Shown here: positions 2 to 58,151 of the stretch, piece after piece | How positions within the stretch are numbered: position 1 is the stretch's first letter | Layout: each line of letters opens with the position of its first letter | NCBI GenBank assembly: GCA_045660325.1 | Contig: JAZRDO010000019.1 | Location: forward strand, 496-64,495 | Direction: 5' to 3' | From: Eubacteriales bacterium | GTDB lineage: Bacteria > Bacillota > Clostridia > Oscillospirales > CAG-272 | DNA: 64,000 bases | Made by a program: the position numbers and the translations under genes | The notes under the pieces: model-generated | Told to the model about the DNA's origin: nothing | Database searches by the model: none | What the model saw: the letters and a program-made list of their open reading frames with translations, nothing else

Positions 2-637
2 ATAATGGGAAAGCGGCAGCTTGGCGAGCTTGAGCTATCCGAGCTCATAACCACTCTTCTCTTCTCCGAGATAGCCACAACGCCCATAACCACCCCCGAC
101 TCACGCCTGGTTGATGCGATAGTGCCTATCGGGATCATAGCCGCGCTGGAAATCCTGCTTTCGCTCATAATGATAAAATTTCCAAAACTCAAACGAATAT
201 TTTCCTCAGGTCCGTCGGTAATTATTCAAAAGGGCAGGATCAACAAAAAGGAAATGCTCAAATCCCGTCTCACTCTCGACGAGCTTATATCTCAAATACG
301 TCAGTGCGGCATATTTGATCTCTGCGAGGTCGATTATGCAATTCTTGAGGAAAACGGCAAAATAACGGTCGTTCCCAAAGCAAGCCAACGCCCGCCGACA
401 GTTAACGATATTGGCATCACGGTCAATGACTCGGGTGTTATGCACATAATTGTTTCGGACGGCAAGATAAACGACTACAACCTCAGACTTGTGGGCAGAG
501 ACAGAAAGTGGCTCGAGTCCTTCCTCAAAAAGCAGGAGCTCAAGCCACAAAATGTTTTCTGTATGACGGTCGACGATGCAAAAAACACATTTATTCAAAC
601 CAAAAACGGTCGTGTGATCACAATATCGAACGACTGA
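2..637 (+). CDS. DUF421/YetF-family membrane protein, N-terminus probably runs off the window
   Basis: The frame stays open to the window edge. The segment GRINKKEMLKSRLTLDELISQIRQCGIFDLCEVDYAILEENGKITVVPK matches the conserved DUF421 core as I recall it. Confidence 0.7.
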   Translation: MMGKRQLGELELSELITTLLFSEIATTPITTPDSRLVDAIVPIGIIAALEILLSLIMIKFPKLKRIFSSGPSVIIQKGRINKKEMLKSRLTLDELISQIRQCGIFDLCEVDYAILEENGKITVVPKASQRPPTVNDIGITVNDSGVMHIIVSDGKINDYNLRLVGRDRKWLESFLKKQELKPQNVFCMTVDDAKNTFIQTKNGRVITISND

Positions 638-4675: not shown

Positions 4676-6328
4676 TTAAACAGTTTCTCTGGCAATAATA
4701 CGCGAGCCGATAGCCGCCTGAATCGGCACCTCAAAGAGCTGACGCGGGATATTTTCCTTGAGTCGCTCTGCGATCTTTCTAGCTCTGCCGTACGCCTTCT
4801 CCTCGTGAACGATAAAGGAAAGCGCGTCGACCTGCTCGCCATTGAGCATAAAGTCAAGCTTAACAAGCTTAGAGGGAACGTAACCCATAAGCTCGTAGTC
4901 AAGCGACGCGTAACCGCGAGAGCGGCTCTTGAGCGCATCAAAGAAGTCGTAAATAATTTCGTTGAGCGGAAGCTCATAATGAAGCTCAACTCTTGTGGAG
5001 TCAAGATATTTCATATCCACGAAAATACCGCGACGGTCCTGGCAAAGATCCATAAGACCGCCCACAAATTCGGTGGGAGTGATAATATTCGCCTTTACCA
5101 TAGGCTCTCTCGCCTCCTTGATATTGTCGGGGGACGGGAAGTTCGAGGGGTTGTCGATCGTGATCATCGAGTTATCCATAAGCGTTACCTCGTAAATAAC
5201 GCCAGGCGCGGTCGTGATAAGATCAAGATTGAATTCGCGCTCAAGTCTCTCCTCGATAATTTCCATGTGAAGAAGACCGAGGAAGCCACAACGGAAGCCA
5301 AAGCCCAAAGCAATAGAAGTTTCGGGCTCAAAGGTGAGAGCCGCATCGTTGAGTTGAAGCTTTTCAAGAGCGTCACGAAGATCGGGATATCTCGCACCGT
5401 CCGCAGGATAAATACCCGCAAATACCATAGGCTGAGCCGCCTTGAAGCCCGGAAGAGCCTCGACAGCAGGGTTGTCCTTCAAGGTAACCGTATCACCAAC
5501 TCGTGTGTCGCCAATGCTCTTGATTGATGCGGTAAGGTATCCTACCTCGCCCGCGCGGAGCGTGTCGCACTTGCGAAGGCCGAAGGCCTCCATCGTACCA
5601 ACCTCAACAACCTCAAATTCCTTGCCCGTGCTCATAAGCTTGATCGTGTCGCCAGCGGAAAGGCAGCCGTCGATAACTCTGATATTAACAACGACACCGA
5701 GATAGCTATCGTAGTAGGAGTCGAAAATAAGACACTTGAGAGGCGCATTCTCGTCGCCCGTAGGCGCAGGAATGTCGCGCACAACTGCCTCAAGAACGGA
5801 TTCAATATTAAGTCCCGTCTTGGCGGAAACCGCAGGACAGCCCTCGGCAGGAATGCCGATCTCGTCCTCAATTTCCCCTCTTACACGTTCAACGTCCGCA
5901 CTGGGAAGGTCTATTTTATTAATTACAGGTACTATCTCGAGTCCCGCGTCTACCGCGAGATAGGCGTTGGCAAGCGTCTGTGCCTCAATACCCTGTGTGG
6001 CGTCCACGACGAGGAGAGCGCCGTCACAAGCGTTGAGTGAACGGGAAACCTCGTAGTTAAAGTCAACGTGACCGGGAGTATCAATAAGATTGAAAACATA
6101 CTGCTCGCCATCGGGGGCAGTATAATCAAGCTTTACCGCTCGCGCCTTGATAGTGATTCCTCTCTCTTTTTCAAGATCCATATTGTCGAGAATCTGCTCC
6201 TCCATCTCGCGCTTCGAAACCGCCTGAGTGGACTCAAGGATTCTATCGGCAAGAGTGGACTTACCGTGGTCAATATGCGCGATAATCGAGAAGTTACGTA
6301 TTCTCTTCATTCTTTCATTTGTTGCCAT
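4676..6328 (-). CDS. lepA: elongation factor 4 (LepA), truncated by an in-frame TAA at 4676-4678
   Basis: G1 motif [15 protein letters not shown] and DTPGHVDF. The ORF ends ...[11 protein letters not shown], exactly where homologs continue K-A-(L/M)-RKDV. Confidence 0.9.
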
Positions 6329-6423
6329 ATTAAAATTCCTATCTGAAAATTTGCATTTTACTACATTTTATATTATAATATATTTTTTTCAATTTCTCAA
6401 TACCTTTGAGAAAAATTTTTATC

Positions 6424-6456
6424 AAAAAAGAGACCCCGCGGCAGAGCCGCGGGGTC
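6424..6456 (-). terminator. intrinsic terminator after the small peptide gene
   Basis: GACCCCGCGG/CCGCGGGGTC stem followed on the minus strand by a T-run. Confidence 0.75.
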
Positions 6457-6464
6457 GGGAGTTA

Positions 6465-6557
6465 TCAGTTGCAGCCGCAGCAAAGGAGAACAAGCGCGAT
6501 TATGATAATCCAGATCCAGTTGTCGTTAAAAATAGAGCACAAGCAGTTGTTGTTCAT
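6465..6557 (-). CDS. 30-aa Cys-rich hydrophobic peptide (MNNNCLCSIFNDNWIWIIIIALVLLCCGCN)
   Basis: A GGAGG box lies 7 nt upstream of the ATG at 6557. It has its own terminator and a single hydrophobic helix flanked by Cys clusters. Confidence 0.5.
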   Translation of the reverse strand: MNNNCLCSIFNDNWIWIIIIALVLLCCGCN

Positions 6558-7290: not shown

Positions 7291-7464
7291 CTCAAGCCTC
7301 CTCTCTTATGATTATCAAAGTATATTTTTGCCAAAAATTTGTTCATATAATATTATACAATTAAAATATTTTATTGTCAATAGAAAAAATATGCCGTATA
7401 AATTGCGCAATATAAAATTAAAGAATATTTTTCTAAAAAAAGACAAAATATTTTGAAAAAAGTA

Positions 7465-7493
7465 TTGACAAAGTGGATATAATTTGCTATAAT
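7465..7493 (+). promoter_or_regulatory. consensus sigma-A promoter of tRNA-Gln
   Basis: TTGACA (7465-7470), 17-nt spacer, TATAAT (7488-7493). It sits 18 nt upstream of the tRNA 5' end. Confidence 0.75.
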
Positions 7494-7511
7494 GATTGAG
7501 CGTTAAAAAAT

Positions 7512-7587
7512 TGGGGCATCGCCAAGCGGTAAGGCATCAGACTCTGACTCTGACATTACCGGGGTTCGAATCCCTGTGCCCCAGCCA
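7512..7587 (+). tRNA. tRNA-Gln (anticodon CUG), CCA encoded
   Basis: Acceptor TGGGGCA/TGCCCCA, D-arm GCCAAGCGGTAAGGC, anticodon arm TCAGA-CTCTGAC-TCTGA, T-arm CGGGG-TTCGAAT-CCCTG, discriminator G plus CCA. Close to E. coli tRNA-Gln. Confidence 0.95.
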
Positions 7588-7626
7588 AAAACAAAAAGAC
7601 CACTTTTAGTGGTCTTTTTTGTTTTT
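7588..7626. terminator. bidirectional terminator T1
   Basis: AGACCACT-TTT-AGTGGTCT hairpin flanked by an A-tract and a T-tract. Confidence 0.85.
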
Positions 7627-7640
7627 CGTTAGGAAAATCC

Positions 7641-7763
7641 GATTCGAACCCCCCGCGAGCCAATTTGCAAAGCAAATGGCGAGAATGTTTTGCGCTTATA
7701 TTATGCCGATTTAAATATATACGTAGGCGCAAAACTAGGTTCAGAATCCCTGTGCCCCAGCCA
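7641..7763 (+). repeat. tRNA-Gln-linked structured repeat unit A1
   Basis: Starts GATTCGAACCCCCC, the reverse complement of the tRNA-Gln T-arm. Contains hairpin CCAATTTGC-AAA-GCAAATGG and helix GTTTTGCGC(7687-7695)/GCGCAAAAC(7727-7735). Ends AGGTTCAGAATCCCTGTGCCCCAGCCA. Confidence 0.85.
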
Positions 7764-7802
7764 AAAACAAAAAGACCACTTTTAGTGGTCTTTTTTGTTT
7801 TT
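7764..7802. terminator. bidirectional terminator T2 (identical to T1)
   Basis: Same AGACCACT/AGTGGTCT hairpin at 7773-7791. Confidence 0.85.
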
Positions 7803-7816
7803 CGTTAGGAAAATCC

Positions 7817-7938
7817 GATTCGAACCCCCGCGAGCCAATTTGCAAAGCAAATGGCGAGAGACGTTTTGCACGTTGATTACTTTGAATTAAGATATACATT
7901 GGTGCAAAACTAGGTTCAGAATCCCTGTGCCCCAGCCA
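7817..7938 (+). repeat. tRNA-Gln-linked structured repeat unit A2
   Basis: Same architecture as A1. The helix is GTTTTGCAC(7863-7871)/GTGCAAAAC(7902-7910). Confidence 0.85.
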
Positions 7939-7979
7939 AAAAATAAAAGGAGTAGCAAAGGCTACTCCTTTTATTTTTT
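7939..7979. terminator. bidirectional terminator T3
   Basis: AAGGAGTAGC-AAAG-GCTACTCCTT hairpin with flanking A- and T-tracts. Confidence 0.85.
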
Positions 7980-7994
7980 CGTATGAGTAATATT

Positions 7995-8115
7995 ATTCGA
8001 ACCCCCGCGAGCCAATTTGCGTAGCAAATGGCGAGAGACGTTTTGCACGTTGATTACTTTGAATTAAGATATAAATTGGTGCAAAACTAGGTTCAGAATC
8101 CCTGTGCCCCAGCCA
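7995..8115 (+). repeat. tRNA-Gln-linked structured repeat unit A3
   Basis: Near-identical to A2. The hairpin loop changes from AAA to GTA. The helix is 8040-8048/8079-8087. Confidence 0.85.
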
Positions 8116-8155
8116 AAACAAAAGAGAGGAACTTTGTTCCTCTCTTTTTGTTTTG
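8116..8155. terminator. bidirectional terminator T4
   Basis: AGAGAGGAAC-TTT-GTTCCTCTCT hairpin with flanking A- and T-tracts. Confidence 0.85.
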
Positions 8156-8171
8156 CTTGAGACCGCTAGAT

Positions 8172-8295
8172 GATGAACCCCCGCAAACACTTGTGTTTGC
8201 TTGTTTGCGGCTCGATTACTTTAATTTATTATATGCTTTGCCGCAAACATAGGTTCAGAATCCCTGTGCGCCTACGGCTTGCAACGGTTCAAATC
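8172..8295. repeat. chimeric Gln/Arg junction unit (A4 on plus, B2 on minus)
   Basis: GATGAACCCCC, then hairpin GCAAACAC-TT-GTGTTTGC, then helix GTTTGCGG(8203-8210)/CCGCAAAC(8241-8248). This is followed by AGGTTCAGAATCCCTGTGCGCC and then TGCAACGGTTCAAATC, which is the Arg T-arm sequence in plus orientation. Confidence 0.8.
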
Positions 8296-8307
8296 ATAAA
8301 GGATAAA

Positions 8308-8345
8308 CCAAAAAGATGCGAGGGGTATTCCCCTCGCATTTTTTA
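8308..8345. terminator. bidirectional terminator T5
   Basis: ATGCGAGGGG-TATT-CCCCTCGCAT hairpin with flanking A- and T-tracts. Confidence 0.85.
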
Positions 8346-8543
8346 GCCTGCCCGAACGGATTTATGTTCGCCGCGTCAACTTCCGTTGACATCAAATGCG
8401 ACGAACGTTGAGAATGCACGCATTCTCACGTGTGCGCGGATGTCTAACACCGACATCCGCTACACAGTTTTGCGGTAAGGTATATCTATTCCAAAGCACT
8501 TCAAACCGCAAAACAGCACCCTTCGGGTGCAACGGTTCAAATC
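8346..8543 (-). repeat. tRNA-Arg-linked structured repeat unit B1
   Basis: On the minus strand it starts GATTTGAACCGTT, the reverse complement of the tRNA-Arg T-arm. It contains hairpin GCACCC-GAA-GGGTGC, a helix GTTTTGCGG/CCGCAAAAC, and three further hairpins. It ends in 18 nt (AAATCCGTTCGGGCAGGC) identical to the tRNA-Arg 3' end. Confidence 0.85.
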
Positions 8544-8554
8544 GTAAAGAATAA

Positions 8555-8595
8555 ACGAAAACAACAACAGGGGGCTTTGCCCCCTGTTGTTGTTT
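8555..8595. terminator. bidirectional terminator T6 (terminates tRNA-Arg)
   Basis: ACAACAACAGGGGGC-TTT-GCCCCCTGTTGTTGT, a 15-bp stem with flanking A- and T-tracts. Confidence 0.85.
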
Positions 8596-8672
8596 TGGCC
8601 TGCCCGAACGGATTTGAACCGTTGACCTTTAGAGTCGGAGTCTAACGCCCTATCCAGCTGTGCCACGGGCAG
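8596..8672 (-). tRNA. tRNA-Arg (anticodon CCG), CCA encoded
   Basis: Minus-strand acceptor CTGCCCG/CGGGCAG, D-loop AGCTGGATAG, anticodon arm TTAGA-CTCCGAC-TCTAA, T-arm AACGG-TTCAAAT-CCGTT, then G plus CCA. Confidence 0.9.
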
Positions 8673-8685
8673 ATATTACCTATAT

Positions 8686-8714
8686 ATTTTACCACAAAGA
8701 AAAGTATTTTTCAA
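8686..8714 (-). promoter_or_regulatory. sigma-A promoter of tRNA-Arg
   Basis: Minus strand reads TTGAAA, 17-nt spacer, TAAAAT, with a TG two nt upstream of the -10 element. Confidence 0.7.
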
Positions 8715-8744
8715 TAATTTTTTGCCGATAAAATCAAATAATTC

Positions 8745-8773
8745 AAAAACACCCCCGCGGATAACCGCGGGGG
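8745..8773 (-). terminator. terminator of the 460-aa lipoprotein gene
   Basis: CCCCCGCGG-ATAA-CCGCGGGGG hairpin followed by a T-run on the minus strand. Confidence 0.8.
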
Positions 8774-8793
8774 ATAACAGTTAATATTAAATA

Positions 8794-10176
8794 TTAGCCT
8801 GCTGTTGTAAGTGTAAGGTCTGTATCGTTAGCAACAACTTCGATTGTGAAGTCCTTAATACAGTACTTTTCACCTGTTGCATTGTTGATCATGAAGAGGT
8901 GAACTACGTCGCCGCTCTGAAGATCGGATGCGCCGAGCCAATACTTATAAATGGAAGCACCGGGAAGATTAGCGCCTGCAATCGCACCGCCGATACCGGG
9001 GTTAACGTGATGGTCAACTGCTGTACCGTTAACGGTCTTCATAAACTCACCGTTTCTGTAAACCTCGCCGCTGAAGGAAACGTTGGTGTAATCAAGTCCC
9101 TGGCCATAAAGTGCGCTGAAGCCTACCCAACCTTCAATTGTGAAGATGTGATCAGCAACCTCAATATCCTTCTGGAGAATTCTGAGGACCTTATTCCATG
9201 TATATGTAGGTGTGTTGTTACCGATGGAGTCACCGATTACAGAGCCTCTGTTCCAAACTCTAAGTCTGTCAGATCTACCTGCAGCGTCTGTAAGGTTGTG
9301 AGAGGACTTACATGTGTCGAAGGATACAATGTAAATGGGGTTCTGAGAATCCTGCATTGTAACGTGACCGAATTCATCTCTATCAGCTACGTAGATCTCG
9401 TCGCCTACGCAAACTGCTTCCATCTTGAAGATAGTCTGAACGTCGCCTTCAAGGTTCTTTCTACCGAACCATACAGTTACGTATTCTTCATCCTCGTATT
9501 CATCAAGGCTGATAGTAACGTCGTAGTTAGCGTTGAAGGGATTAAGATTCTTGATCTGAGCGATCTTAGCGAAGGGCTCCATAGCCGCATAATCCTGATC
9601 GGAGTAAGATGCCTTAGTAACCGCCTTCCATGTTGCGCCGTAGTCATCGGACCAAACCATATCGCCCTGACCACCCTCAAGGATAGCCCAGCCGGAGATG
9701 TTGATGCTTCTGCAGTAGTAGTCAAGCTGACCGTCAGCTACAGGAGGCCAATATACAGCGTTGGGGTTCTGTGTGTTAGGAGAAATTGTGTGGTAACCGT
9801 TAGCGATAGAGAACTTTCTACCGTCCTGACCGAGACCGTTGATAGCTGTCAATGTACCGATGTAAGGAATTGTTTCCTGTACAGGAGGAGGTGTGGGATC
9901 ATCTGTGCCACCACCGCTAGTTGTATCCGATGTTGTATCGGATGTTGTATCGGATGTTGTGTCGGATGTTGTGTCGGATGTTGTATCCGAGGTTGTGTCC
10001 TGAGGAAGGTCACCGGTATTGCCTTCGTCATCTGTATCCTTTGTTGTAGTAGGATCCTCTACGTTCTGAGAGGGATTCTCGGGGTTTGTAGGTGTCTCGC
10101 CGCCACCGTTGTTACAAGCCACGAAAATTACAGTAAACGCAAGAACAAGTGCCAATGCGATAAGTAATTTCTTCAT
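8794..10176 (-). CDS. secreted lipoprotein with (TSDTT)n linker, unknown function
   Basis: Lipobox MKKLLIALALVLAFTVIFVAC. Low-complexity Thr/Ser/Asp/Pro linker followed by a roughly 350-aa globular region. The start is taken as ATG 10176 rather than the upstream TTG. Confidence 0.6.
   Translation of the reverse strand: MKKLLIALALVLAFTVIFVACNNGGGETPTNPENPSQNVEDPTTTKDTDDEGNTGDLPQDTTSDTTSDTTSDTTSDTTSDTTSDTTSGGGTDDPTPPPVQETIPYIGTLTAINGLGQDGRKFSIANGYHTISPNTQNPNAVYWPPVADGQLDYYCRSINISGWAILEGGQGDMVWSDDYGATWKAVTKASYSDQDYAAMEPFAKIAQIKNLNPFNANYDVTISLDEYEDEEYVTVWFGRKNLEGDVQTIFKMEAVCVGDEIYVADRDEFGHVTMQDSQNPIYIVSFDTCKSSHNLTDAAGRSDRLRVWNRGSVIGDSIGNNTPTYTWNKVLRILQKDIEVADHIFTIEGWVGFSALYGQGLDYTNVSFSGEVYRNGEFMKTVNGTAVDHHVNPGIGGAIAGANLPGASIYKYWLGASDLQSGDVVHLFMINNATGEKYCIKDFTIEVVANDTDLTLTTAG
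9920..9999. repeat. tandem 15-bp coding repeat (about 5-6 copies) encoding TSDTT
   Basis: GGATGTTGT(A/G)TC(G/C)-type period visible directly in 9920-9999. Confidence 0.8.
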
Positions 10177-10247
10177 GATTATCAAATCCTTTCAAAATGA
10201 TTTTTCCTTATATGCACAGTAAAAACTTTGCATATTACCTTATGATA

Positions 10248-10387: not shown

Positions 10388-13300
10388 TTAGTTCCAGTAC
10401 ATACCGAAGAGAGTATCGTAGTTACCGCCGAGACCCTGCCAGCCTGTAACGATAGCGATGGACTCGATATCGATTGTGATGCCGGGAGCGAATCTAACGA
10501 TCATCATAGAGTGACCTGCGGGAACCTTCCAACCGTCCTGAACGGAGATTGCCCAACCGTTAGCAGATGTACCGATCCAGCCTCTACCACATGCGTTACC
10601 GCCTGCTGCGAGACAACCGCCGCAAGTACCGTAACAAATGTTAACCTGGTTAGCGCTGGGAGAGTGGTTTCTGTACTTCATAAGTACGTAGTTACCTACG
10701 TAATCGTTAGTGTTCCAACCGCCATTGAGGGAGTGAACGCCTGTGAAGAGAAGGAAGAGACGACCACCGTCACCGCCGTTAGCGTTAGCTGTGAGTCTGA
10801 TGTACTCGCCGTTACCGTCGTTGCGGATCTCTGCATCGAAGCCCCAAGCTGCGCCGCCGAGGTTCTTCCAAGATGTGTAGAGCTGCTGAGCATCCCAACG
10901 ACCGTTGCTTACAACACCTGCATCAAGAAGCTCAACGTCCTTGGATGCAAGAACACCACCGTTGATGCCACCGTTGTGAAGCTTAATTGTGTATGTGCCC
11001 TCTGTAGCGAGCTTAGCGAGTTCAGGATTTACAACTGTTACGCCTGTGCCACCGTTAGGAGCGAAGCCTGTGGATGTAGCTGTTGCTGTGTAGTACATAA
11101 CGAGATCGCTGCCCTTATAGAGAGCTACTACGTCAGTTGTGCTTGCTGTAACAGCTGTAACATCAATATTACCGCCAAGACCGATCTTACCGTCAGCATC
11201 ACCGAGGTTAACGCCTACAGTCTGTCTTGTAAGAGTGAATGTGTCAAGGAGAATGATTTCGCCGTTTGTCTGGCTCTTGTAGAATACTTCTACGTTGTAA
11301 GCCTGGTTAAGAGCGAAGTCAGCGGGGAGCAAGTATGCAAAGTCGAACTGTGCTACTGTAGCGTCGATCATTGTCTTTGTGGATCCCCAAGAGATATCGT
11401 AGTTGCCAACCTTGATACCGAGGTTAGCTGCGGGAAGCTCTACGTTAGATGTAAGACGAGCAGCAAGGTTGAGCTGGTAGTCGGAGTCAACGAGAGTTAC
11501 TGTGTTAAGAAGAACGGGGCTTGTGGACTGAGCTGTGAACGCAGGAACTCTGTTACCTACGAGGGTGTTCTCAGCGGAAATACCAACGAATGTGAAGTTG
11601 GAAATTGTAGAACCGTTTTCTTCCTTTGTGATGTAGTTACCGTTGGGGTTAGCAACAGCCATTGCATCAGCATATGTATCGTAGAACTCAATGGGAGCAA
11701 CGTCGAGCCAGTCGCCGTTAGCTGCGCCGATTGCGTTAGCATCGAACATTACCCAGTCAAGAGTCTTGATTGTGGATACGTCGATTGCACCGTTGTTGGA
11801 AAGGTCAACGATGATATATCTCCAAGAGTTATCAAGGATGATGTTGAGCCAGTTAGCGTTGTACTTCTTACCGCCAATGTTCTGTGTACCGTTTACGTTG
11901 AGGTAGAAGTCATAGTTTGCGCCGTAGCCGGAGCCGTTACCTCTGAACTTGATGAGCATGAACTTCTTAACGTTAAGACCTTCAGCGTCATTGAAGAGAG
12001 AAAGTGTGGGCTTAGCTGTACCTGCTGCGAATGTGTAGTGAACGTAGTCACCAACGATTGTAGCGTTTACGTTTGTCTTGTCAGCCATGTTACCAGCAGC
12101 TGCAAGGAAGTTAACGTCGAGCTTGTTGGGGTTAGCCTTTGTAACTACAAGCTTCTTTACGTTGAGAACCTGAACGAGCTCAGTTCTGCCTGTAGCTTCA
12201 TCAACTGCTACTACGCCTGCAATTCTGAGGTCAATTGTCTTGCCCTCGTACTTTGCAAGATCCATAAGGATCACGAAGCTGCCGTCCTCAGCCATTACAG
12301 CCTCATTAGCTGTAAGTGTCTTCCAGGACATACCGCCGTCGAGAGAGTAAACGAGCTTCTGCACGCCGCCTTCAACGACAACCTTACCCTGAAGCTTGAG
12401 CATGAAGTTGTTATAGAATCTACCGTTCCAGTTGATAACTGTAACGCCGTTATTTTCGTTTGTGTTAAGGAACTTACCGGGAGCGCCGTATTCGCCTGTA
12501 CCGTTAATGTTGTCTAATGTTGTTGTGTGGCTTTTGTCAGAGTCTACGTAAACGCTGGGCATTGTGAATTCACCCTTTGTTTCAGCATACTCGATAGCGT
12601 CTGCCTTGTTGTTGAAGAACGCGATGTATTCAACGTCAATAGCGGAGCCCTCTACGAAGCCGTTGAAGAGAACGTACTTAAGTGTATCGATTGCAGCACC
12701 GCCGAGCATATCGTACTCAACGCCGTTGAGGTCGATCTGGTTCTTGCGGAGGTCGATGTTGAGAAGTGTCCACTTGCCAACAGTTGCTTCATTATTATAG
12801 TTGATTACGTTGTCGCCGGATACGCTTGCGAAGAAGTCAACACCGTTGATAACGAACTTACCGTCGCGGTTGCCGCCGAAGTCCTTAAGTGTTGCTGCTG
12901 CACGGTACTTAATGGAGATAACGTCTGCGAAGTTGTCGCCGAGGAATTCAAGATATGCATCAAGAGCCTCTGCTGTGAGTGTTACGTAAGAGCCGTCTTC
13001 GCTTGCTGTTACGTCAACGTTGTTAAAGAGAACCTTTGCATCCTCTTCAGCTGTGAGATCTTCTACTGTGTAGAGGAGCTCGGGAGCCTTCTTAGGAAGA
13101 ACTGTCTCATCTGTTGTGCCACATCTGCCGCAAGTTGCGGATGCCTTACCTTCAGCAGCGAACGTAGGAGCCAATGTCTCAACCCATACGTACTTGTGAC
13201 CGAGAGCGGGAATTACTGCATAGTCAGTACCGTTTGTGTCGCCACATACTGTACATACGCTACCAGCTACGAAGCCGTCCTCTGTACATGTTGCGTCCTT

Positions 13301-13999
13301 AGCAGCAACGTCTGTGTAGTCGTGACCTGTAGCAGCCTTAAGAACTGCATCACAGTCAACGCACACGGAATCTTCAGTACATGTAGCATCACCGGATGCT
13401 GTGTGACCTGTAGCGGGAATTGTGAACTCGCCTGTTACGTCACAGTTTACACAAGTACCGAACTTGATACCGTCAACTGTACATGTAGCGGGCTTAAGAA
13501 TGTTCCATTCGGAGCCTTCAGCAACTGCGTGACCGAGAGCAGGTGTCTCGAGAGTTGCCTTGTCGCCACACTTGGAGCATGTTGCTTCGCTAAGACCTGC
13601 TTCATCACATGTAGGAGCAGTTACTACTACGAAGTCGCCCATTACGCAAGCGCCGTCAGCAGACTTTTCTGTCTTACCGCACTTTGTGCACTCTCTAACG
13701 AGTCTGTCCTTGTCAGAGCAAAGCTTACCGTCAACCTTTGTCCATTCGCCAAAGGAGCAAGCGTCTGCCTTTGTTTCCTTTGCACCGCACTTTGTACAAA
13801 CTCTGTAGAGTCTGTTAGCGTCAGCGCATTCTACGGACGCATCGGTTGACCAATCGCCGTATTCATGTTCGCACTCTGTAGCAGGGGGTGTTACAGGGGC
13901 TGTTGTACCGGGCTCGGGAGTATTGTCGTTACCCTTACAAGCAGCAAAAGTAAGCACCAAAACAAGAGCCAGTACCAAGCAAATAAGTAATTTTTTCAT
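10388..13999 (-). CDS. large secreted lipoprotein: N-terminal Cys-rich repeats plus repeated beta-sandwich-like modules
   Basis: Lipobox MKKLLICLVLALVLVLTFAAC. Repeated modules of the form C-T-x-x-G...C-x-x-CG...(P)A(L/T)GH. The long Asn/Gly/Val-rich C-terminal region resembles carbohydrate-binding or adhesin proteins. Start taken as ATG 13999. Confidence 0.65.
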   Translation of the reverse strand: MKKLLICLVLALVLVLTFAACKGNDNTPEPGTTAPVTPPATECEHEYGDWSTDASVECADANRLYRVCTKCGAKETKADACSFGEWTKVDGKLCSDKDRLVRECTKCGKTEKSADGACVMGDFVVVTAPTCDEAGLSEATCSKCGDKATLETPALGHAVAEGSEWNILKPATCTVDGIKFGTCVNCDVTGEFTIPATGHTASGDATCTEDSVCVDCDAVLKAATGHDYTDVAAKDATCTEDGFVAGSVCTVCGDTNGTDYAVIPALGHKYVWVETLAPTFAAEGKASATCGRCGTTDETVLPKKAPELLYTVEDLTAEEDAKVLFNNVDVTASEDGSYVTLTAEALDAYLEFLGDNFADVISIKYRAAATLKDFGGNRDGKFVINGVDFFASVSGDNVINYNNEATVGKWTLLNIDLRKNQIDLNGVEYDMLGGAAIDTLKYVLFNGFVEGSAIDVEYIAFFNNKADAIEYAETKGEFTMPSVYVDSDKSHTTTLDNINGTGEYGAPGKFLNTNENNGVTVINWNGRFYNNFMLKLQGKVVVEGGVQKLVYSLDGGMSWKTLTANEAVMAEDGSFVILMDLAKYEGKTIDLRIAGVVAVDEATGRTELVQVLNVKKLVVTKANPNKLDVNFLAAAGNMADKTNVNATIVGDYVHYTFAAGTAKPTLSLFNDAEGLNVKKFMLIKFRGNGSGYGANYDFYLNVNGTQNIGGKKYNANWLNIILDNSWRYIIVDLSNNGAIDVSTIKTLDWVMFDANAIGAANGDWLDVAPIEFYDTYADAMAVANPNGNYITKEENGSTISNFTFVGISAENTLVGNRVPAFTAQSTSPVLLNTVTLVDSDYQLNLAARLTSNVELPAANLGIKVGNYDISWGSTKTMIDATVAQFDFAYLLPADFALNQAYNVEVFYKSQTNGEIILLDTFTLTRQTVGVNLGDADGKIGLGGNIDVTAVTASTTDVVALYKGSDLVMYYTATATSTGFAPNGGTGVTVVNPELAKLATEGTYTIKLHNGGINGGVLASKDVELLDAGVVSNGRWDAQQLYTSWKNLGGAAWGFDAEIRNDGNGEYIRLTANANGGDGGRLFLLFTGVHSLNGGWNTNDYVGNYVLMKYRNHSPSANQVNICYGTCGGCLAAGGNACGRGWIGTSANGWAISVQDGWKVPAGHSMMIVRFAPGITIDIESIAIVTGWQGLGGNYDTLFGMYWN

Positions 14000-14064
14000 G
14001 ATTACAAAAAAATCCTTTCTCAAACTTTCTCACAAACGAAAAGTATAGTCTGTGTATTCAGTTT

Positions 14065-28100: not shown

Positions 28101-28133
28101 CGGTTATTTGTATATATGATTTATATATTCAAA

Positions 28134-29339
28134 TTATTCAATGATCTCGGAAACAACGCCGGAACCAACTGTTCTACCACCCTCACGGATAGCGAAACGG
28201 AGACCCTTTTCACAAGCGATGGGCTTGATAAGCTCAACTGTCATGTTTACGTTGTCACCAGGACGGCACATTTCTGTACCTTCGGGAAGCTCGATAACAC
28301 CTGTTACGTCAGTTGTTCTGAAGTAGAACTGAGGTCTGTAACCAGAAAGGAAGGGCTTAGAACGGCCACCTTCTTTTTCTGTAAGAACGTATACCTGACC
28401 TACGAACTTTGTGTGGGGGTGTACGGAACCGGGCTTTGCAAGAACCTGACCTCTTTCGATCTCATCCTTAGCTACGCCACGGAGAAGAGCACCGATGTTG
28501 TCACCAGCCTCAGCCTGGGGAAGAAGCTTGTGGAACATTTCAACACCTGTAACTGTTGTGGACTTCTTTTCTTCTTCAAGACCAACGATTTCAACAACGT
28601 CGCCAACCTTAACTGTACCTCTTTCAACTCTACCTGTAGCAACTGTACCACGACCAGAGATGGAGAATACGTCCTCGACAGGCATAAGGAAGTCGAGGTC
28701 TGCCTTACGCTCGGGAGTAGGAATGTATGCGTCAACTTCAGCCATGAGCTCGAGAATGCAAGCATACTCGGGAGCGTTGATATCATTGTTTGTGGACTCG
28801 AGAGCGTCACGAGCAGAACCACGAACGATAGGAAGATCGTCGCCGGGGAAGTCGTAGGAAGAGAGAAGGTCTCTGATTTCCATTTCTACGAGATCAAGAA
28901 GCTCATCGTCATCAACGAGGTCCTTCTTGTTCATGAATACAACGATTGCAGGAACGCCTACCTGACGTGCGAGAAGAACGTGCTCTCTTGTCTGTGCGAG
29001 AGGGCCGTCTGTAGCAGCAACAACGAGGATAGCGCCGTCCATCTGAGCAGCACCGGTGATCATGTTCTTAACGTAGTCGGCGTGGCCGGGGCAGTCAACG
29101 TGAGCGTAGTGACGGTTGTCTGTCTCGTACTCAACGTGTCTTGTGTTAATTGTGATACCTCTTGCTCTTTCTTCGGGAGCGTTGTCGATCTGGTCGTAAG
29201 CCATGAATTCAACGTTACCGTTTGCAAGACCAAGAACCTTAGTGATAGCAGCAGTTGTTGTTGTCTTACCATGGGCAACGTGACCGATAGTACCAATGTT
29301 TACGTGGGGCTTTCTTCTTTCAAATGTAGCCTTTGCCAT
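28134..29339 (-). CDS. tuf: elongation factor Tu
   Basis: [23 protein letters not shown]. Confidence 0.98.
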
Positions 29340-29413
29340 TTTGAATTTCCTCCATAAATTATGAGTATTTTTTTGTTTTTTGTTTTTTTGTTTTTTATAT
29401 AACTAATTTTAAA

Positions 29414-55857: not shown

Positions 55858-55914
55858 TTTTCGCTCTTTCTTTGTTTTTATACGGGAAAACCTATGTTTT
55901 TCCCAAGTTAGTCA

Positions 55915-55945
55915 AACAGAAAAGGAACAAATGTTCCTTTTCTGC
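55915..55945 (-). terminator. probable terminator after serS
   Basis: CAGAAAAGGAAC-AAAT-GTTCCTTTTCTG hairpin. The trailing U-tract on the minus strand is short. Confidence 0.5.
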
Positions 55946-55955
55946 CCTTTTTATC

Positions 55956-57233
55956 TTATCTGATTACGTCTACGCCAAGATACTTGCGGAGCACCTCGGG
56001 AACTGTTACAGAGCCGTCTGCGTTCTGATTCTGTTCCACGAGCGCGGGAAGAATTCTGGACGTTGCAAGACCCGAGCCATTGAGAGTGTGAAGGTATTCT
56101 ATTCTACCGTCAGCTCTCTTCACTCTCATCATACCGCGGCGAGCCTGATAGTCACGCGCGTTAGAAACGGAGCTTACTTCCTTATATCCGTTCATAGAAG
56201 GAATGTTGATCTCGATATCGTACGTTCTCGCCATGGATGCGGAGCAGTCCTCTGCCGCGAGCTTAACTGTTCTGAAATGGAATCCAAGACCCGAAACAAG
56301 CTTTTCAGCCTTTTCAACGAGCTCGTCAAACGCCTCGTCACTCTTTTCGGGAAGCGTGTACTGGAACATTTCAACCTTGTTGAACTGGTGTCCTCTTACC
56401 ATACCTCTCTCGTCGGAACGGTAGGAGCCCGCCTCACGTCTGAAGCAGGGTGTATAGCTCACAAGCTTCTTGGGAAGGTCTGCTTCTGTAAGAATTTCAT
56501 TTCTGTAAAGAGATGCAAGAGCCGCCTCTGCAGTAGGAAGCATATATCTCATTCTGTTGTCCGTGGGGTTTTCGATCTTATAAACCTCGTCAGCAAACTT
56601 CGGGAACTGACCTGCTGTCAAACCACACTCGTATTCAAGCATATGAGGGGGCAAAATAAGCTCATAGCCGTCGCCGAGGTGAGTATCGATAAAGTAGTTG
56701 AGGAGCGCCCATTCAAGTCTTGCACCCATACCGCGATAGATCCAGAAACCGGAGCCCGAAAGCTTTGTTCCGCGATCGTAATCGATAAGACCGAGGCTTG
56801 TGCAGAGGTCAACGTGATTCTTGGGCTCAAAATCAAACTTGTGAGGCTCGCCAAAGTAACGGATGGGCTCGTTGTTTTCCTTGCCGCCGGGCTTAAGATC
56901 ACGGTCAGGAAGGTTGGGAAGAGCGAGCATATAGGAGGAAAGCTCCGCTTCAACCGCCTTGATCTGCTCATCGTTTGCCTTAACTGTCGCGCCGATCTCA
57001 CGGGACTTAGCGAAGATCTCGGAGGGATCGCGGCCTTCCTTTTTATACATAGGAATCATCTTGGAGAGCTTGTTCTGCTCAGCCTTGAGAGATTCTGTGG
57101 AGGAAATGAGGCTTCTTCTCTTGGCATCAAGCTCAAGAATCTTTGCGATTTCTTCCTTTGCATCCTTGCCCTTGTGGGCAAGTCTTTCTATAACTTCGTC
57201 GGGATTGCTCTTTATATAGTTTATGTCAAGCAT
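55956..57233 (-). CDS. serS: seryl-tRNA synthetase
   Basis: N-terminal coiled-coil arm and class-II motifs (FRREAGS..., GSGLATSR). Confidence 0.95.
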   Translation of the reverse strand: MLDINYIKSNPDEVIERLAHKGKDAKEEIAKILELDAKRRSLISSTESLKAEQNKLSKMIPMYKKEGRDPSEIFAKSREIGATVKANDEQIKAVEAELSSYMLALPNLPDRDLKPGGKENNEPIRYFGEPHKFDFEPKNHVDLCTSLGLIDYDRGTKLSGSGFWIYRGMGARLEWALLNYFIDTHLGDGYELILPPHMLEYECGLTAGQFPKFADEVYKIENPTDNRMRYMLPTAEAALASLYRNEILTEADLPKKLVSYTPCFRREAGSYRSDERGMVRGHQFNKVEMFQYTLPEKSDEAFDELVEKAEKLVSGLGFHFRTVKLAAEDCSASMARTYDIEINIPSMNGYKEVSSVSNARDYQARRGMMRVKRADGRIEYLHTLNGSGLATSRILPALVEQNQNADGSVTVPEVLRKYLGVDVIR

Positions 57234-57269
57234 GGTAATTTTCCTTTCTGTATATGGATTTTATGTAAA

Positions 57270-58151
57270 TTAAGACTTGAAAATATCCTTGCCGCATATA
57301 AGCTCAAGAAGCTCGGCGAGGTCATCATCGTTATCATAGGAAAGCTCGAGAGTCTTCTTCTTTGCGGACTGGTTGATCTTAACCTTTCTGCCGAGTGTTT
57401 CCATAACGCGTCTTTCAAGATCCTTCATATATACGCGTCTCTGTGCGTCGGGTTTGTTGACTGATACAACAATTGTTTTTTCCTCAAGCATTGAGCGAAC
57501 GATTCTTTCAACGTCGCGAACGGAAAGATCATTATCAGCAACCTTCTTTGCAAGCTCGATCATCTGCTCGTCGGACTTAAGACCGAGAAGCGCTCTCGCG
57601 TGACCGTTTGTGATCTTATCTTCCTTAAGCATTGTAAGAACCTCGTCGGGAAGGTCGAGAAGGCGGAGCATATTTGCGATCGCGGAACGGCTCTTACCTA
57701 CCTCACGGGAGATCTGCTCCTGTGTCATATTATATCTCTCAATGAGGGCGCTATATGCAAGCGCCTCTTCAACTGCGTTAAGATTTTCTCTCTGTACGTT
57801 CTCAACAAGAGAGATCTGAGCGACCTTTAAGTCGTCTCCGTCGATAATTACAACGGGAATTTCGGAAAGTCCCGCCATTTTGGATGCTCTCCAACGTCTC
57901 TCACCTGCAATAATCTCGTAAGAGCCCTTGAATCTCGCGTTTTCTCTTACGATAATAGGCTGAAGCACACCGTGAATAGCAATAGAGTCAGCTAAAAGCT
58001 GGAGACCCTCGTCGTCAAAAGTCTTTCTGGGCTGATCGCCTCTGGGCTCGATATCGGAAACCTTGATAGTAGTTACACTGTCCTTCTTTTCCTCGAGCAT
58101 ATTGTCATCAAGAATTGAATAAAAATCTCTTCCAAGACCGCCACGTGCCAT
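57270..58151 (-). CDS. parB: chromosome partitioning protein ParB/Spo0J
   Basis: ParB box GERRWRAS and an HTH (TQEQISREVGKSRSAIANMLRL). Confidence 0.95.
   Translation of the reverse strand: MARGGLGRDFYSILDDNMLEEKKDSVTTIKVSDIEPRGDQPRKTFDDEGLQLLADSIAIHGVLQPIIVRENARFKGSYEIIAGERRWRASKMAGLSEIPVVIIDGDDLKVAQISLVENVQRENLNAVEEALAYSALIERYNMTQEQISREVGKSRSAIANMLRLLDLPDEVLTMLKEDKITNGHARALLGLKSDEQMIELAKKVADNDLSVRDVERIVRSMLEEKTIVVSVNKPDAQRRVYMKDLERRVMETLGRKVKINQSAKKKTLELSYDNDDDLAELLELICGKDIFKS

Follow-up and report, generated by a model that had tools for sequence, protein, structure and literature searches.

A covarying inverted repeat is one module of small non-coding units arrayed behind tRNA genes in Clostridia

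The window analysed here, a 64-kb stretch (64,000 nucleotides (nt)) of contig JAZRDO010000019.1 from a Eubacteriales bacterium of the class Clostridia, contains two convergent tRNA genes, tRNA-Gln(CTG) and tRNA-Arg(CCG), and the approximately 1 kb between them is filled with repeated units. Within these units lies an inverted repeat (IR), GTTTTGC-N(30–38)-GCAAAAC, which has four exact matches (A1–A3 and B1 in Table 1), no further match elsewhere in the window and none in 100 shuffled sequences; a fifth, junction copy (J) has one T fewer. The helices of the window copies are 9–13 bp long and enclose loops of 23–30 nt, in which the only conserved motif is ATATAC, located 4 nt before the 3′ arm. 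The initial annotation had described the IR as a covarying helix around an internal promoter that faces the neighbouring tRNA 3′-end copy. Its account of the arms was accurate, as the variable bases are complementary in all five copies (GC/GC, AC/GT, AC/GT, GG/CC and GG/CC), and so was its account of orientation, as the B1 spacer aligns with the A spacers solely on the minus strand, along which its own tRNA-Arg is read.

The IR is one module of a non-coding unit of 158–278 bp inserted behind tRNA genes. In the direction of the tRNA, the unit consists of a tRNA 3′ tail (from GAATCC or AAATCC in the T-loop through CCA), a strong intrinsic terminator (T), a segment (H) in which the loop and 5′ half of the T-arm recur in inverted form, with a small hairpin after it, the IR, in some units an additional element (X), and a right end made of GGTTC plus one extra base, which is followed by the next tRNA tail. 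Displaced Gln copies thus read TTCAGAAT, in contrast to the TTCGAAT of the live tRNA-Gln T-loop, which lacks the extra base. The terminators of the five window units were scored on both strands, and the additional one in the minus-strand array end on the minus strand alone. Tandem Repeats Finder reported a period of 177 nt with 3.2 copies and 87% matches at 7563–8123. Over 86 nt (7744–7829 and 7568–7653) T and H of E2 are 100% identical to those of E1, and IR A3 is nearly identical to IR A2. The units hold no credible gene, their only open reading frames (ORFs) being 68 amino acids (aa) or less and overlapping tRNA-derived repeats. An Rfam search of 7300–8800 on both strands, with E values up to 10, gave only the two tRNAs as significant matches, all others falling far under their gathering scores.

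Table 1. Features of the tRNA-Gln/tRNA-Arg locus and spans of element X in the window and related loci.
Feature	Position	Strand	Length (nt)	Description
tRNA-Gln(CTG)	7512..7587	+		Target of the plus-strand array; ARAGORN; Rfam tRNA, 57.1 bits
Unit E1	7568..7743	+	176	Tail GAATCC..CCA; T stem 7593–7619; H with inverted T-loop copy GATTCGAACCCC 7641–7652; small hairpin 7659–7680; IR A1 7687–7735; right end ctaGGTTCA
Unit E2	7744..7918	+		IR A2 7863–7910, arms GTTTTGCAC/GTGCAAAAC
Unit E3	7919..8095	+	177	Different terminator (stem 7938–7979) and different H; IR A3 8040–8087
Unit E4	8096..8257	+	162	Third terminator 8120–8148; H with GAACCCC and hairpin GCAAACacttgtGTTTGC; IR J 8203–8248, GTTTGCGGC/GCCGCAAAC
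Cut-off displaced tRNA-Gln 3′ tail	8258..8272	+		GAATCCCTGTGCgcc; the plus-strand array ends here against the minus-strand array
Minus-strand array end	8273..8363	-		Displaced tRNA-Arg 3′ tail 8345–8363; second terminator 8316–8339; second H with inverted T-loop copy 8282–8295
Unit B1 (approximate ends)	8364..8615	-	252	tRNA-Arg 3′ tail; terminator 8558–8596; H with inverted T-loop copy 8530–8543 (CAACGGTTCAAATC on the plus strand); small hairpin 8516–8530; IR B1 8467–8514; X with hairpins P1–P3 about 8365–8466
X, window	8365..8466	-		Element X, in unit B1
X, L029	5292..5460	-		nhmmer span, X and IR
X, L042	1831..2002	-		nhmmer span, X and IR
X, L057	6216..6383	-		nhmmer span, X and IR
tRNA-Arg(CCG)	8596..8672	-		Target of the minus-strand array; ARAGORN, Rfam

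Relatives were sought by scanning one genome per species for the IR pattern and by synteny, with the flanking CDP-alcohol phosphatidyltransferase and lipoprotein-like genes as anchors. The scan returned 21 loci, among which only L006 and L012 are real relatives; both are Clostridia metagenome-assembled genomes from sheep gut, and their IRs adjoin the 3′ tails of two other tRNAs. Synteny added five further loci (L029, L042, L045, L057/L058 and L059), and more distant pgsA homologues (P0017, P0019 and P0028) were not syntenic with tRNA-Gln. The family is found at four tRNAs, each with a matching 3′ tail, the Gln and Arg versions occurring in the window, L029, L042, L057, L058 and L059. The resulting set comprised 16 IR copies from the window and seven related assemblies, of which 15 (window and six assemblies) were aligned, the sixteenth coming from L059. 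In the homologous copies the arms stayed complementary: 96.2% of the arm cells in the alignment form standard pairs, and at three of the nine pairs both partners changed (11 cells), with C-G replaced by T-A at position 7, G-C by A-T at position 8, and C-G, G-C and A-T variants at position 9. The covariation score was reached by none of 500 shuffles, and slid controls pair at 56% or less. In the L059 copy, C-G stands in place of T-A at arm position 2 (GCTTTGTGC/GCACAAAGC), which brings the compensated positions to four of nine. The orientation of the spacer relative to the tRNA is fixed in all 16 copies. The IR helix is real, and it is under selection or is at least actively maintained.

The position at which the units join the tRNA sequence can be read from the displaced copies and from two variants. 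All displaced copies carry TTC plus an extra base (A in Gln, T in Arg) that the live tRNA lacks. A G/A polymorphism at R57 follows the right side of the junction (L057 and L058), and an inverted block in L028 ends exactly at TTC/GAATCC; together, these place the junction between C56 and R57, with the extra base right there. The H module matches the tRNA behind which it lies. In Gln units, H shares 7–12 nt exactly with the reverse complement of tRNA-Gln and 5–6 nt with that of tRNA-Arg, whereas in Arg units it matches tRNA-Arg over 7–14 nt and tRNA-Gln over 5–7 nt. This complementarity to the insertion site resembles the pairing between guide and cleavage-site sequences in IS608.

Predicted folds bring H together with the ends of the unit. 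Of 11 linear segments, 10 are predicted to have GGTTC(N)GAATC paired to H, in most cases with the extra base bulged; in L012, H is predicted to pair chiefly with the 3′ strand of the acceptor stem. Beyond the duplex of H and the ends, the predicted fold continues through an internal bubble into the terminator stem. Circular folds of eight whole units had z scores of −4.2 to −12.1 with 64–76% of bases paired (E1, z = −6.9 and 68%; B1, z = −9.6 and 73%), and H was predicted to bridge the joined ends in seven of the eight and to pair with the right end only in L042. Neither G-U pairs nor fold energies assigned a strand (forward/reverse energies, −68.1/−60.4, −51.1/−53.5, −55.3/−53.2, −72.4/−72.4 and −25.1/−28.0 kcal/mol), and we gave up the idea that the functional strand is the tRNA-sense one.

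Element X is approximately 100 nt long, has three hairpins and occurs in unit B1 of the window and in L029, L042 and L057; a shorter X with P2 and P3 only is present in L057 and L059. P1 reads GATGTC-GGNNNTA-GACATC, P2 reads GAGAATGC-NN-GCATTCTC, and P3 holds an inner hairpin with a GGAA or AGAA loop. For four sequences, RNAalifold predicted a structure of IR, P1, P2 and P3 with 48 consensus pairs, of which 11 carry compensatory changes, and X had no match in Rfam. The P3 arms, GTTYGNCGC...GCGNCRAAC, are followed by AT and AGGTTCA and resemble the IR arms and junction, so that units without X look like deletions from the 3′ arm of the IR to the 3′ strand of P3. The 7-nt internal loop of P3 was considered as a guide to the T-loop and fits tRNA-Arg (ATTTGA versus TCAAAT), but the same loop is found in a tRNA-Gln unit, and we rejected this role. 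As a structure with covariation support and no Rfam match, X deserves a description of its own, and a hairpin-only module that carries this undescribed element and would target T-loops seems to us a more interesting result than the helix.

The modules reassort among units and loci. E1 and E2 share T and H and differ in their IRs, whereas E2 and E3 share the IR and not T and H; at a syntenic site, L057 and L059 have T and the first half of H in common but different small hairpins and IRs, and they differ as to whether X is present. In L029, L042 and L012, the native sequence that follows the final copy contains no H and no block of T and H. As in tRNA-targeting integrative elements, tRNA 3′ direct repeats lie on both sides of the units, the tRNA remains intact and the content at the same tRNA is polymorphic among relatives: the last module of the window's plus-strand array (E4) is the first module behind tRNA-Gln in L029, L042 and L043 encode an identical pgsA protein yet differ in sequence right after tRNA-Gln, and L045 has a tRNA-Gln without a canonical unit. 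Contigs of the closest relatives break off inside the T-loop. A Pfam comparison of 30 of the window's 43 ORFs of at least 120 aa revealed no domain of an integrase, resolvase or transposase, and none appears among the called genes of L029, L042, L057 and L059. Scans of IMG/VR with the IR followed by GGTTC, with the X P1 motif and with an IR arm plus GTTCAGAATC returned chance matches in unrelated genes only, and a scan of JGI metagenomes with the X P2 motif gave two chance matches. Distant-mode blastn of 7588–8600 found nothing in GenBank phages and one 35-nt chance match in PLSDB plasmids.

Several other features of the related loci were recorded. An orphan block of T, H and IR in L029 (2877–3010, minus strand) is nearly identical to L029 unit 2 but retains the whole 3′ arm; it is 2.5 kb away from tRNA-Gln, with a DegV gene on one side and a GntR gene on the other, and is followed by a degenerate tRNA-Gln tail. 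The relative orientation of the two tRNA genes varies, being convergent in the window and tandem in L057 (5567–6776), with tRNA-Gln inverted in L058 (4943–5566), and at positions 1–181 of L028 an inverted tRNA-Gln tail with T and H abuts pgsA, which suggests inversions between oppositely oriented T-loop-like sites. Approximately 300 nt downstream of tRNA-Gln, L045 has a variant inverted repeat (37–82, minus strand; TTTTGTGA-29 nt-TCACAAAA) with a ATATATAC motif, and its contig ends just past this repeat. In L059, at least five copies of GTATATCATC(A) lie among short palindromes at 6270–6480, beside an orphan unit, and look like iterons or protein-binding repeats.

We favour, at somewhat under an even chance, the reading that the units are non-autonomous site-specific insertion modules that work as folded single strands and in which the IR is a hairpin recognized by a protein. 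In its favour are the covariation of the arms, the recurrence of the family at four tRNAs, the constant junction, the signs of mobility, the agreement of H with its target, the predicted folds and the lack of a recombinase domain in 30 window ORFs. The module would enter the T-loop between C56 and R57, and its new 3′ tail and terminator would rebuild the split tRNA. Pairing of H with the joined ends (GGTTC[N]/GAATC) would rebuild a duplex like the T-arm of the tRNA gene, and the IR and X hairpins would serve as recognition or architectural hairpins for an enzyme. The IR itself, a conserved stem of 9–10 bp with an asymmetric loop of approximately 30 nt, would be one building block of these protein-less tandem modules; its arms would stay complementary because the stem must form, and GTTTTGC would stay constant because it is read by a protein. 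We infer that a site-specific enzyme would mobilize the module in trans, the folded strand being most likely DNA at that stage and less likely RNA.

Several observations weigh against this reading. Only approximately 16 copies are available, all from one narrow clade and several of them closely related, and H matches just 6 nt in L006 and L012. Both strands fold about equally well, so that RNA, single-stranded DNA and a cruciform are not distinguished. The IR is missing from the second L012 unit, from L057_Arg2 and from the first L059 unit behind tRNA-Arg, and therefore is not indispensable for the persistence of a unit; in L029_2 its 3′ arm is shortened by 4 nt, the orphan twin (L029 2877–2928) being intact. 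The identical T and H of E1 and E2, which form part of the tandem structure, are equally explained by unequal crossing-over. No excised form, enzyme or transcript was seen, and everything past the anatomy is interpretation. A bolder version, in which the units would represent a new class of minimal mobile DNA (viroid-sized, protein-less, made entirely of hairpins and integrating as folded single strands into tRNA T-loops), we consider improbable; there, H would act as a guide that pairs with both the insertion site and the element's own joined ends, and the IR and X would be handles for a helper enzyme encoded elsewhere.

The strongest competitor to insertion modules is that the units are dead remnants of tRNA-integrating elements such as prophages, integrative and conjugative elements or integrative and mobilizable elements, in which attL became joined to attR after loss of the interior and the product was amplified by unequal crossing-over. 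The IR, H and X would then be former arm-binding palindromes of an integrase or excisionase, and their complementarity would be kept passively by template-switch 'quasipalindrome correction' rather than by selection. We regard such an origin as unlikely. In its favour, integrated elements usually leave partial tRNA 3′ copies beside tRNA genes (PMC9897764). The 86 identical nucleotides of E1 and E2 point to a recent duplication, and some units are visibly decayed or cut short. A T-loop class of integrase sites was reportedly set out by Williams in 2002, and the identity block from T-loop to CCA in the units is like it. Against remnants, no full-length relative with these arms was found in IMG/VR, GenBank phages or PLSDB plasmids, and the same compact layout is found at four tRNAs and in at least seven assemblies, with stems conserved and compensatory changes building up. 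Moreover, H is retargeted along with the direct copy, and passive decay should not leave a perfect complement of 12–14 nt to the T-loop beside a fully diverged stretch.

The promoter proposed for the spacer fared less well than the helix. In that proposal each IR is a sigma-70-type promoter with its −35 hexamer in the 5′ arm and its −10 hexamer in the spacer, the −35 and +1 regions together serve as the operator of a dimeric regulator, and the unit is a small RNA gene that runs from the promoter through X, where present, to the tRNA 3′ copy and terminator. The geometry fits (TTGCNN, 16–18 nt, an AT-rich hexamer, the 3′ arm and then a strong terminator), L042 has a fair match (TTGCGG-16-TATATT, 8/12), the orientation of the spacer relative to the tRNA never changes, and X, with its covariation support, could form the body of such an RNA. 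The TTGCNN is indeed present in the 5′ arm, by construction, but it agrees with TTGACA at just three of six positions, and the same score holds for TTGCNN or TTGTGC in every copy. Hexamers 16–18 nt downstream of TTGCNN match at 2–5 of six positions, mostly three, and usually lack A2 or T6. The −10 hexamers chosen in the initial annotation lie 7–9 nt before the 3′ arm rather than 6–7 nt, and they shift against the conserved ATATAC (TAAATA/tatac, TAAGAT/atac, TAGATA/tac) and hence are not positionally homologous; in the homologous spacers of L058 (attgattacgcggacttttggatgaactctg) and L059, both with perfect arms, there is no −10-like hexamer. Promoter scans of the window, L029, L042 and L057, which required four of six positions per hexamer and nine of 12 overall, found no qualifying promoter in any IR on the tRNA-sense strand; in the same four loci they recovered the promoters of tRNA-Gln and pgsA at 12/12 (tRNA-Gln of the window, 7465–7493). 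An opposite-strand promoter that would use the conserved GTATAT was also rejected, as its single 9/12 match, in L057, is not conserved.

The pairing of the arms is likewise difficult to reconcile with a promoter. A transcript that started from a promoter in the loop would not include the 5′ arm, so that covariation of the arms at the RNA level would go unexplained, and a dimeric operator needs no complementary changes at unconserved positions; half-sites 30 bp apart are also atypical of operators. P3 of X has nearly the same arms around a hairpin rather than around an AT-rich, promoter-like spacer, and therefore conservation of the arms is not tied to promoter geometry. On the strength of the sequence comparisons, the IR as a promoter is not supported, and we give the proposal as a whole a low probability. 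More generally, a helix is well supported when changes within a palindrome remain complementary, whereas hexamers picked from an AT-rich loop do not make good evidence for a promoter. Least probable, and very doubtful, is a structured non-coding RNA (P0-P1-P2-P3 plus tRNA 3′ tail) with the IR as its 5′ hairpin, P0; it would arise by read-through or processing of the tRNA transcript and act in tRNA metabolism or, with X as scaffold and the tail as 3′ guide, in guiding a protein encoded in trans. In its favour, RNAalifold folds the IR and X into a single consistent structure, with a few G-U pairs on the tRNA-sense strand, and a scaffold followed by approximately 20 nt identical to the target and a terminator resembles, by analogy, the 3′-guide RNAs of transposon-associated nucleases. 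Against it, strong terminators with stems of 12–19 bp lie between the tRNA and the IR, no promoter lies upstream of the IR, the folding energy shows no strand preference, Rfam has no match and no nuclease gene is nearby.

Outside the tRNA locus, the window is ordinary core chromosome, with genes that include LepA, HemN-like, MnmE, YidC and ParA. A transglutaminase-like protein with a C-terminal type I dockerin is encoded at 1378–2691 on the minus strand, and the host is probably one of the cellulosome-bearing gut Clostridia. Next to the array, a 463-aa ORF (8794–10185, minus strand) for a lipoprotein-like protein contains a 12-nt tandem repeat (GTTGTATCGGAT, 6.4 copies, 9920–9996) that encodes a (TSDT)n linker; homologues of this protein have no precomputed Pfam domain. 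Three further ORFs of 1211, 413 and 530 aa (10388–14023, minus strand; 28116–29357, plus strand; 55872–57464, plus strand) gave no Pfam match at E values up to 1e-5.

Active insertion modules of the kind favoured here, if such they are, would be smaller than any site-specific integrative element so far described and would be reduced to an attachment site, a complement of the target that resembles a guide, and a few hairpins for recognition. They would point to a helper enzyme that recognizes a T-arm-like duplex, and they would show how tRNA genes of gut Clostridia gather arrays of pseudo-3′ ends. These arrays cause breaks in assemblies and may be annotated, wrongly, as fragments of tRNAs.

Units of this kind were not found described in the literature searched. 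Partial tRNA copies like theirs are left by known tRNA-integrating elements, which are 9–23 kb long (PMC9897764). With tRNA-targeting integrative elements of the tyrosine-integrase, T-loop class and with their gene-less derivatives, the cis-mobilizable elements that build up in tandem, the units share the direct duplication of the tRNA 3′ end on both sides, the identity block from T-loop to CCA, incoming DNA that restores the tRNA and brings a terminator, tandem build-up at one tRNA and the lack of a recombinase within the unit. They differ in size (158–278 bp versus kilobases), in consisting nearly entirely of hairpins and in carrying an inverted copy of the target T-loop and an extra junction base, and no cognate integrase-bearing parent was found in IMG/VR, GenBank phages, PLSDB or 30 window ORFs. 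The units also recall sigma-70 promoters overlapped by palindromic operators, and promoter-bearing miniature inverted-repeat transposable elements (MITEs) such as Correia elements, in that a short repeated element contains a TTG hexamer and AT-rich hexamers at approximately the right spacing; in the IRs these hexamers are weak, vary in position and are missing from some homologues.

Other repeat classes were rejected. Unlike MITEs, the copies lie only behind tRNA genes, apart from two orphans (L029 and L059), with none elsewhere in the window, and the duplicated sequence is a tRNA tail of 20–26 nt rather than a short target-site duplication. A clustered regularly interspaced short palindromic repeat (CRISPR) array does not fit the period of 162–177 nt or the inter-repeat material, which is itself repeated; matches to CRISPR direct repeats were below threshold and fell on terminators. 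A circularly permuted tRNA gene and dif-like sites were rejected on sequence grounds. Palindrome-associated transposable elements derived from IS200/IS605, together with repetitive extragenic palindromes and bacterial interspersed mosaic elements (Y1 HUH class), are closer, being small and non-coding with conserved stems that contain covarying bases and a hairpin 2–8 nt from the element end. IS200/IS605 elements, however, neither duplicate nor rebuild their target, have small hairpin loops and are dispersed in the genome, whereas the units, which occur almost only behind tRNA genes (two orphans were seen), form loops of 30 nt and carry a duplicate of the tRNA tail.

The units are not integron attC sites: GTTTTGC...GCAAAAC is opposite in order to RYYYAAC...GTTRRRY, TTG does not fit RRR, and neither cassette ORFs nor intI were found. 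They nevertheless resemble attC and the attP(+) site of CTX-phi, which is used by XerCD, in having inverted target-like copies around a hairpin that can fold, here by prediction, into a duplex mimicking the target, and also in the predicted bulged base and internal bubble, the tandem arrays and the arm complementarity that is kept while the sequence varies. The differences lie in the target, which is a tRNA T-loop rather than dif or attI, in the lack of an integron integrase or phage genes, and in the single-strandedness, which for the units is inferred. The mechanism of strand exchange by CTX-phi has been described (PMC3442271), and among known systems its folded attachment site is the nearest mechanistic counterpart of the units.

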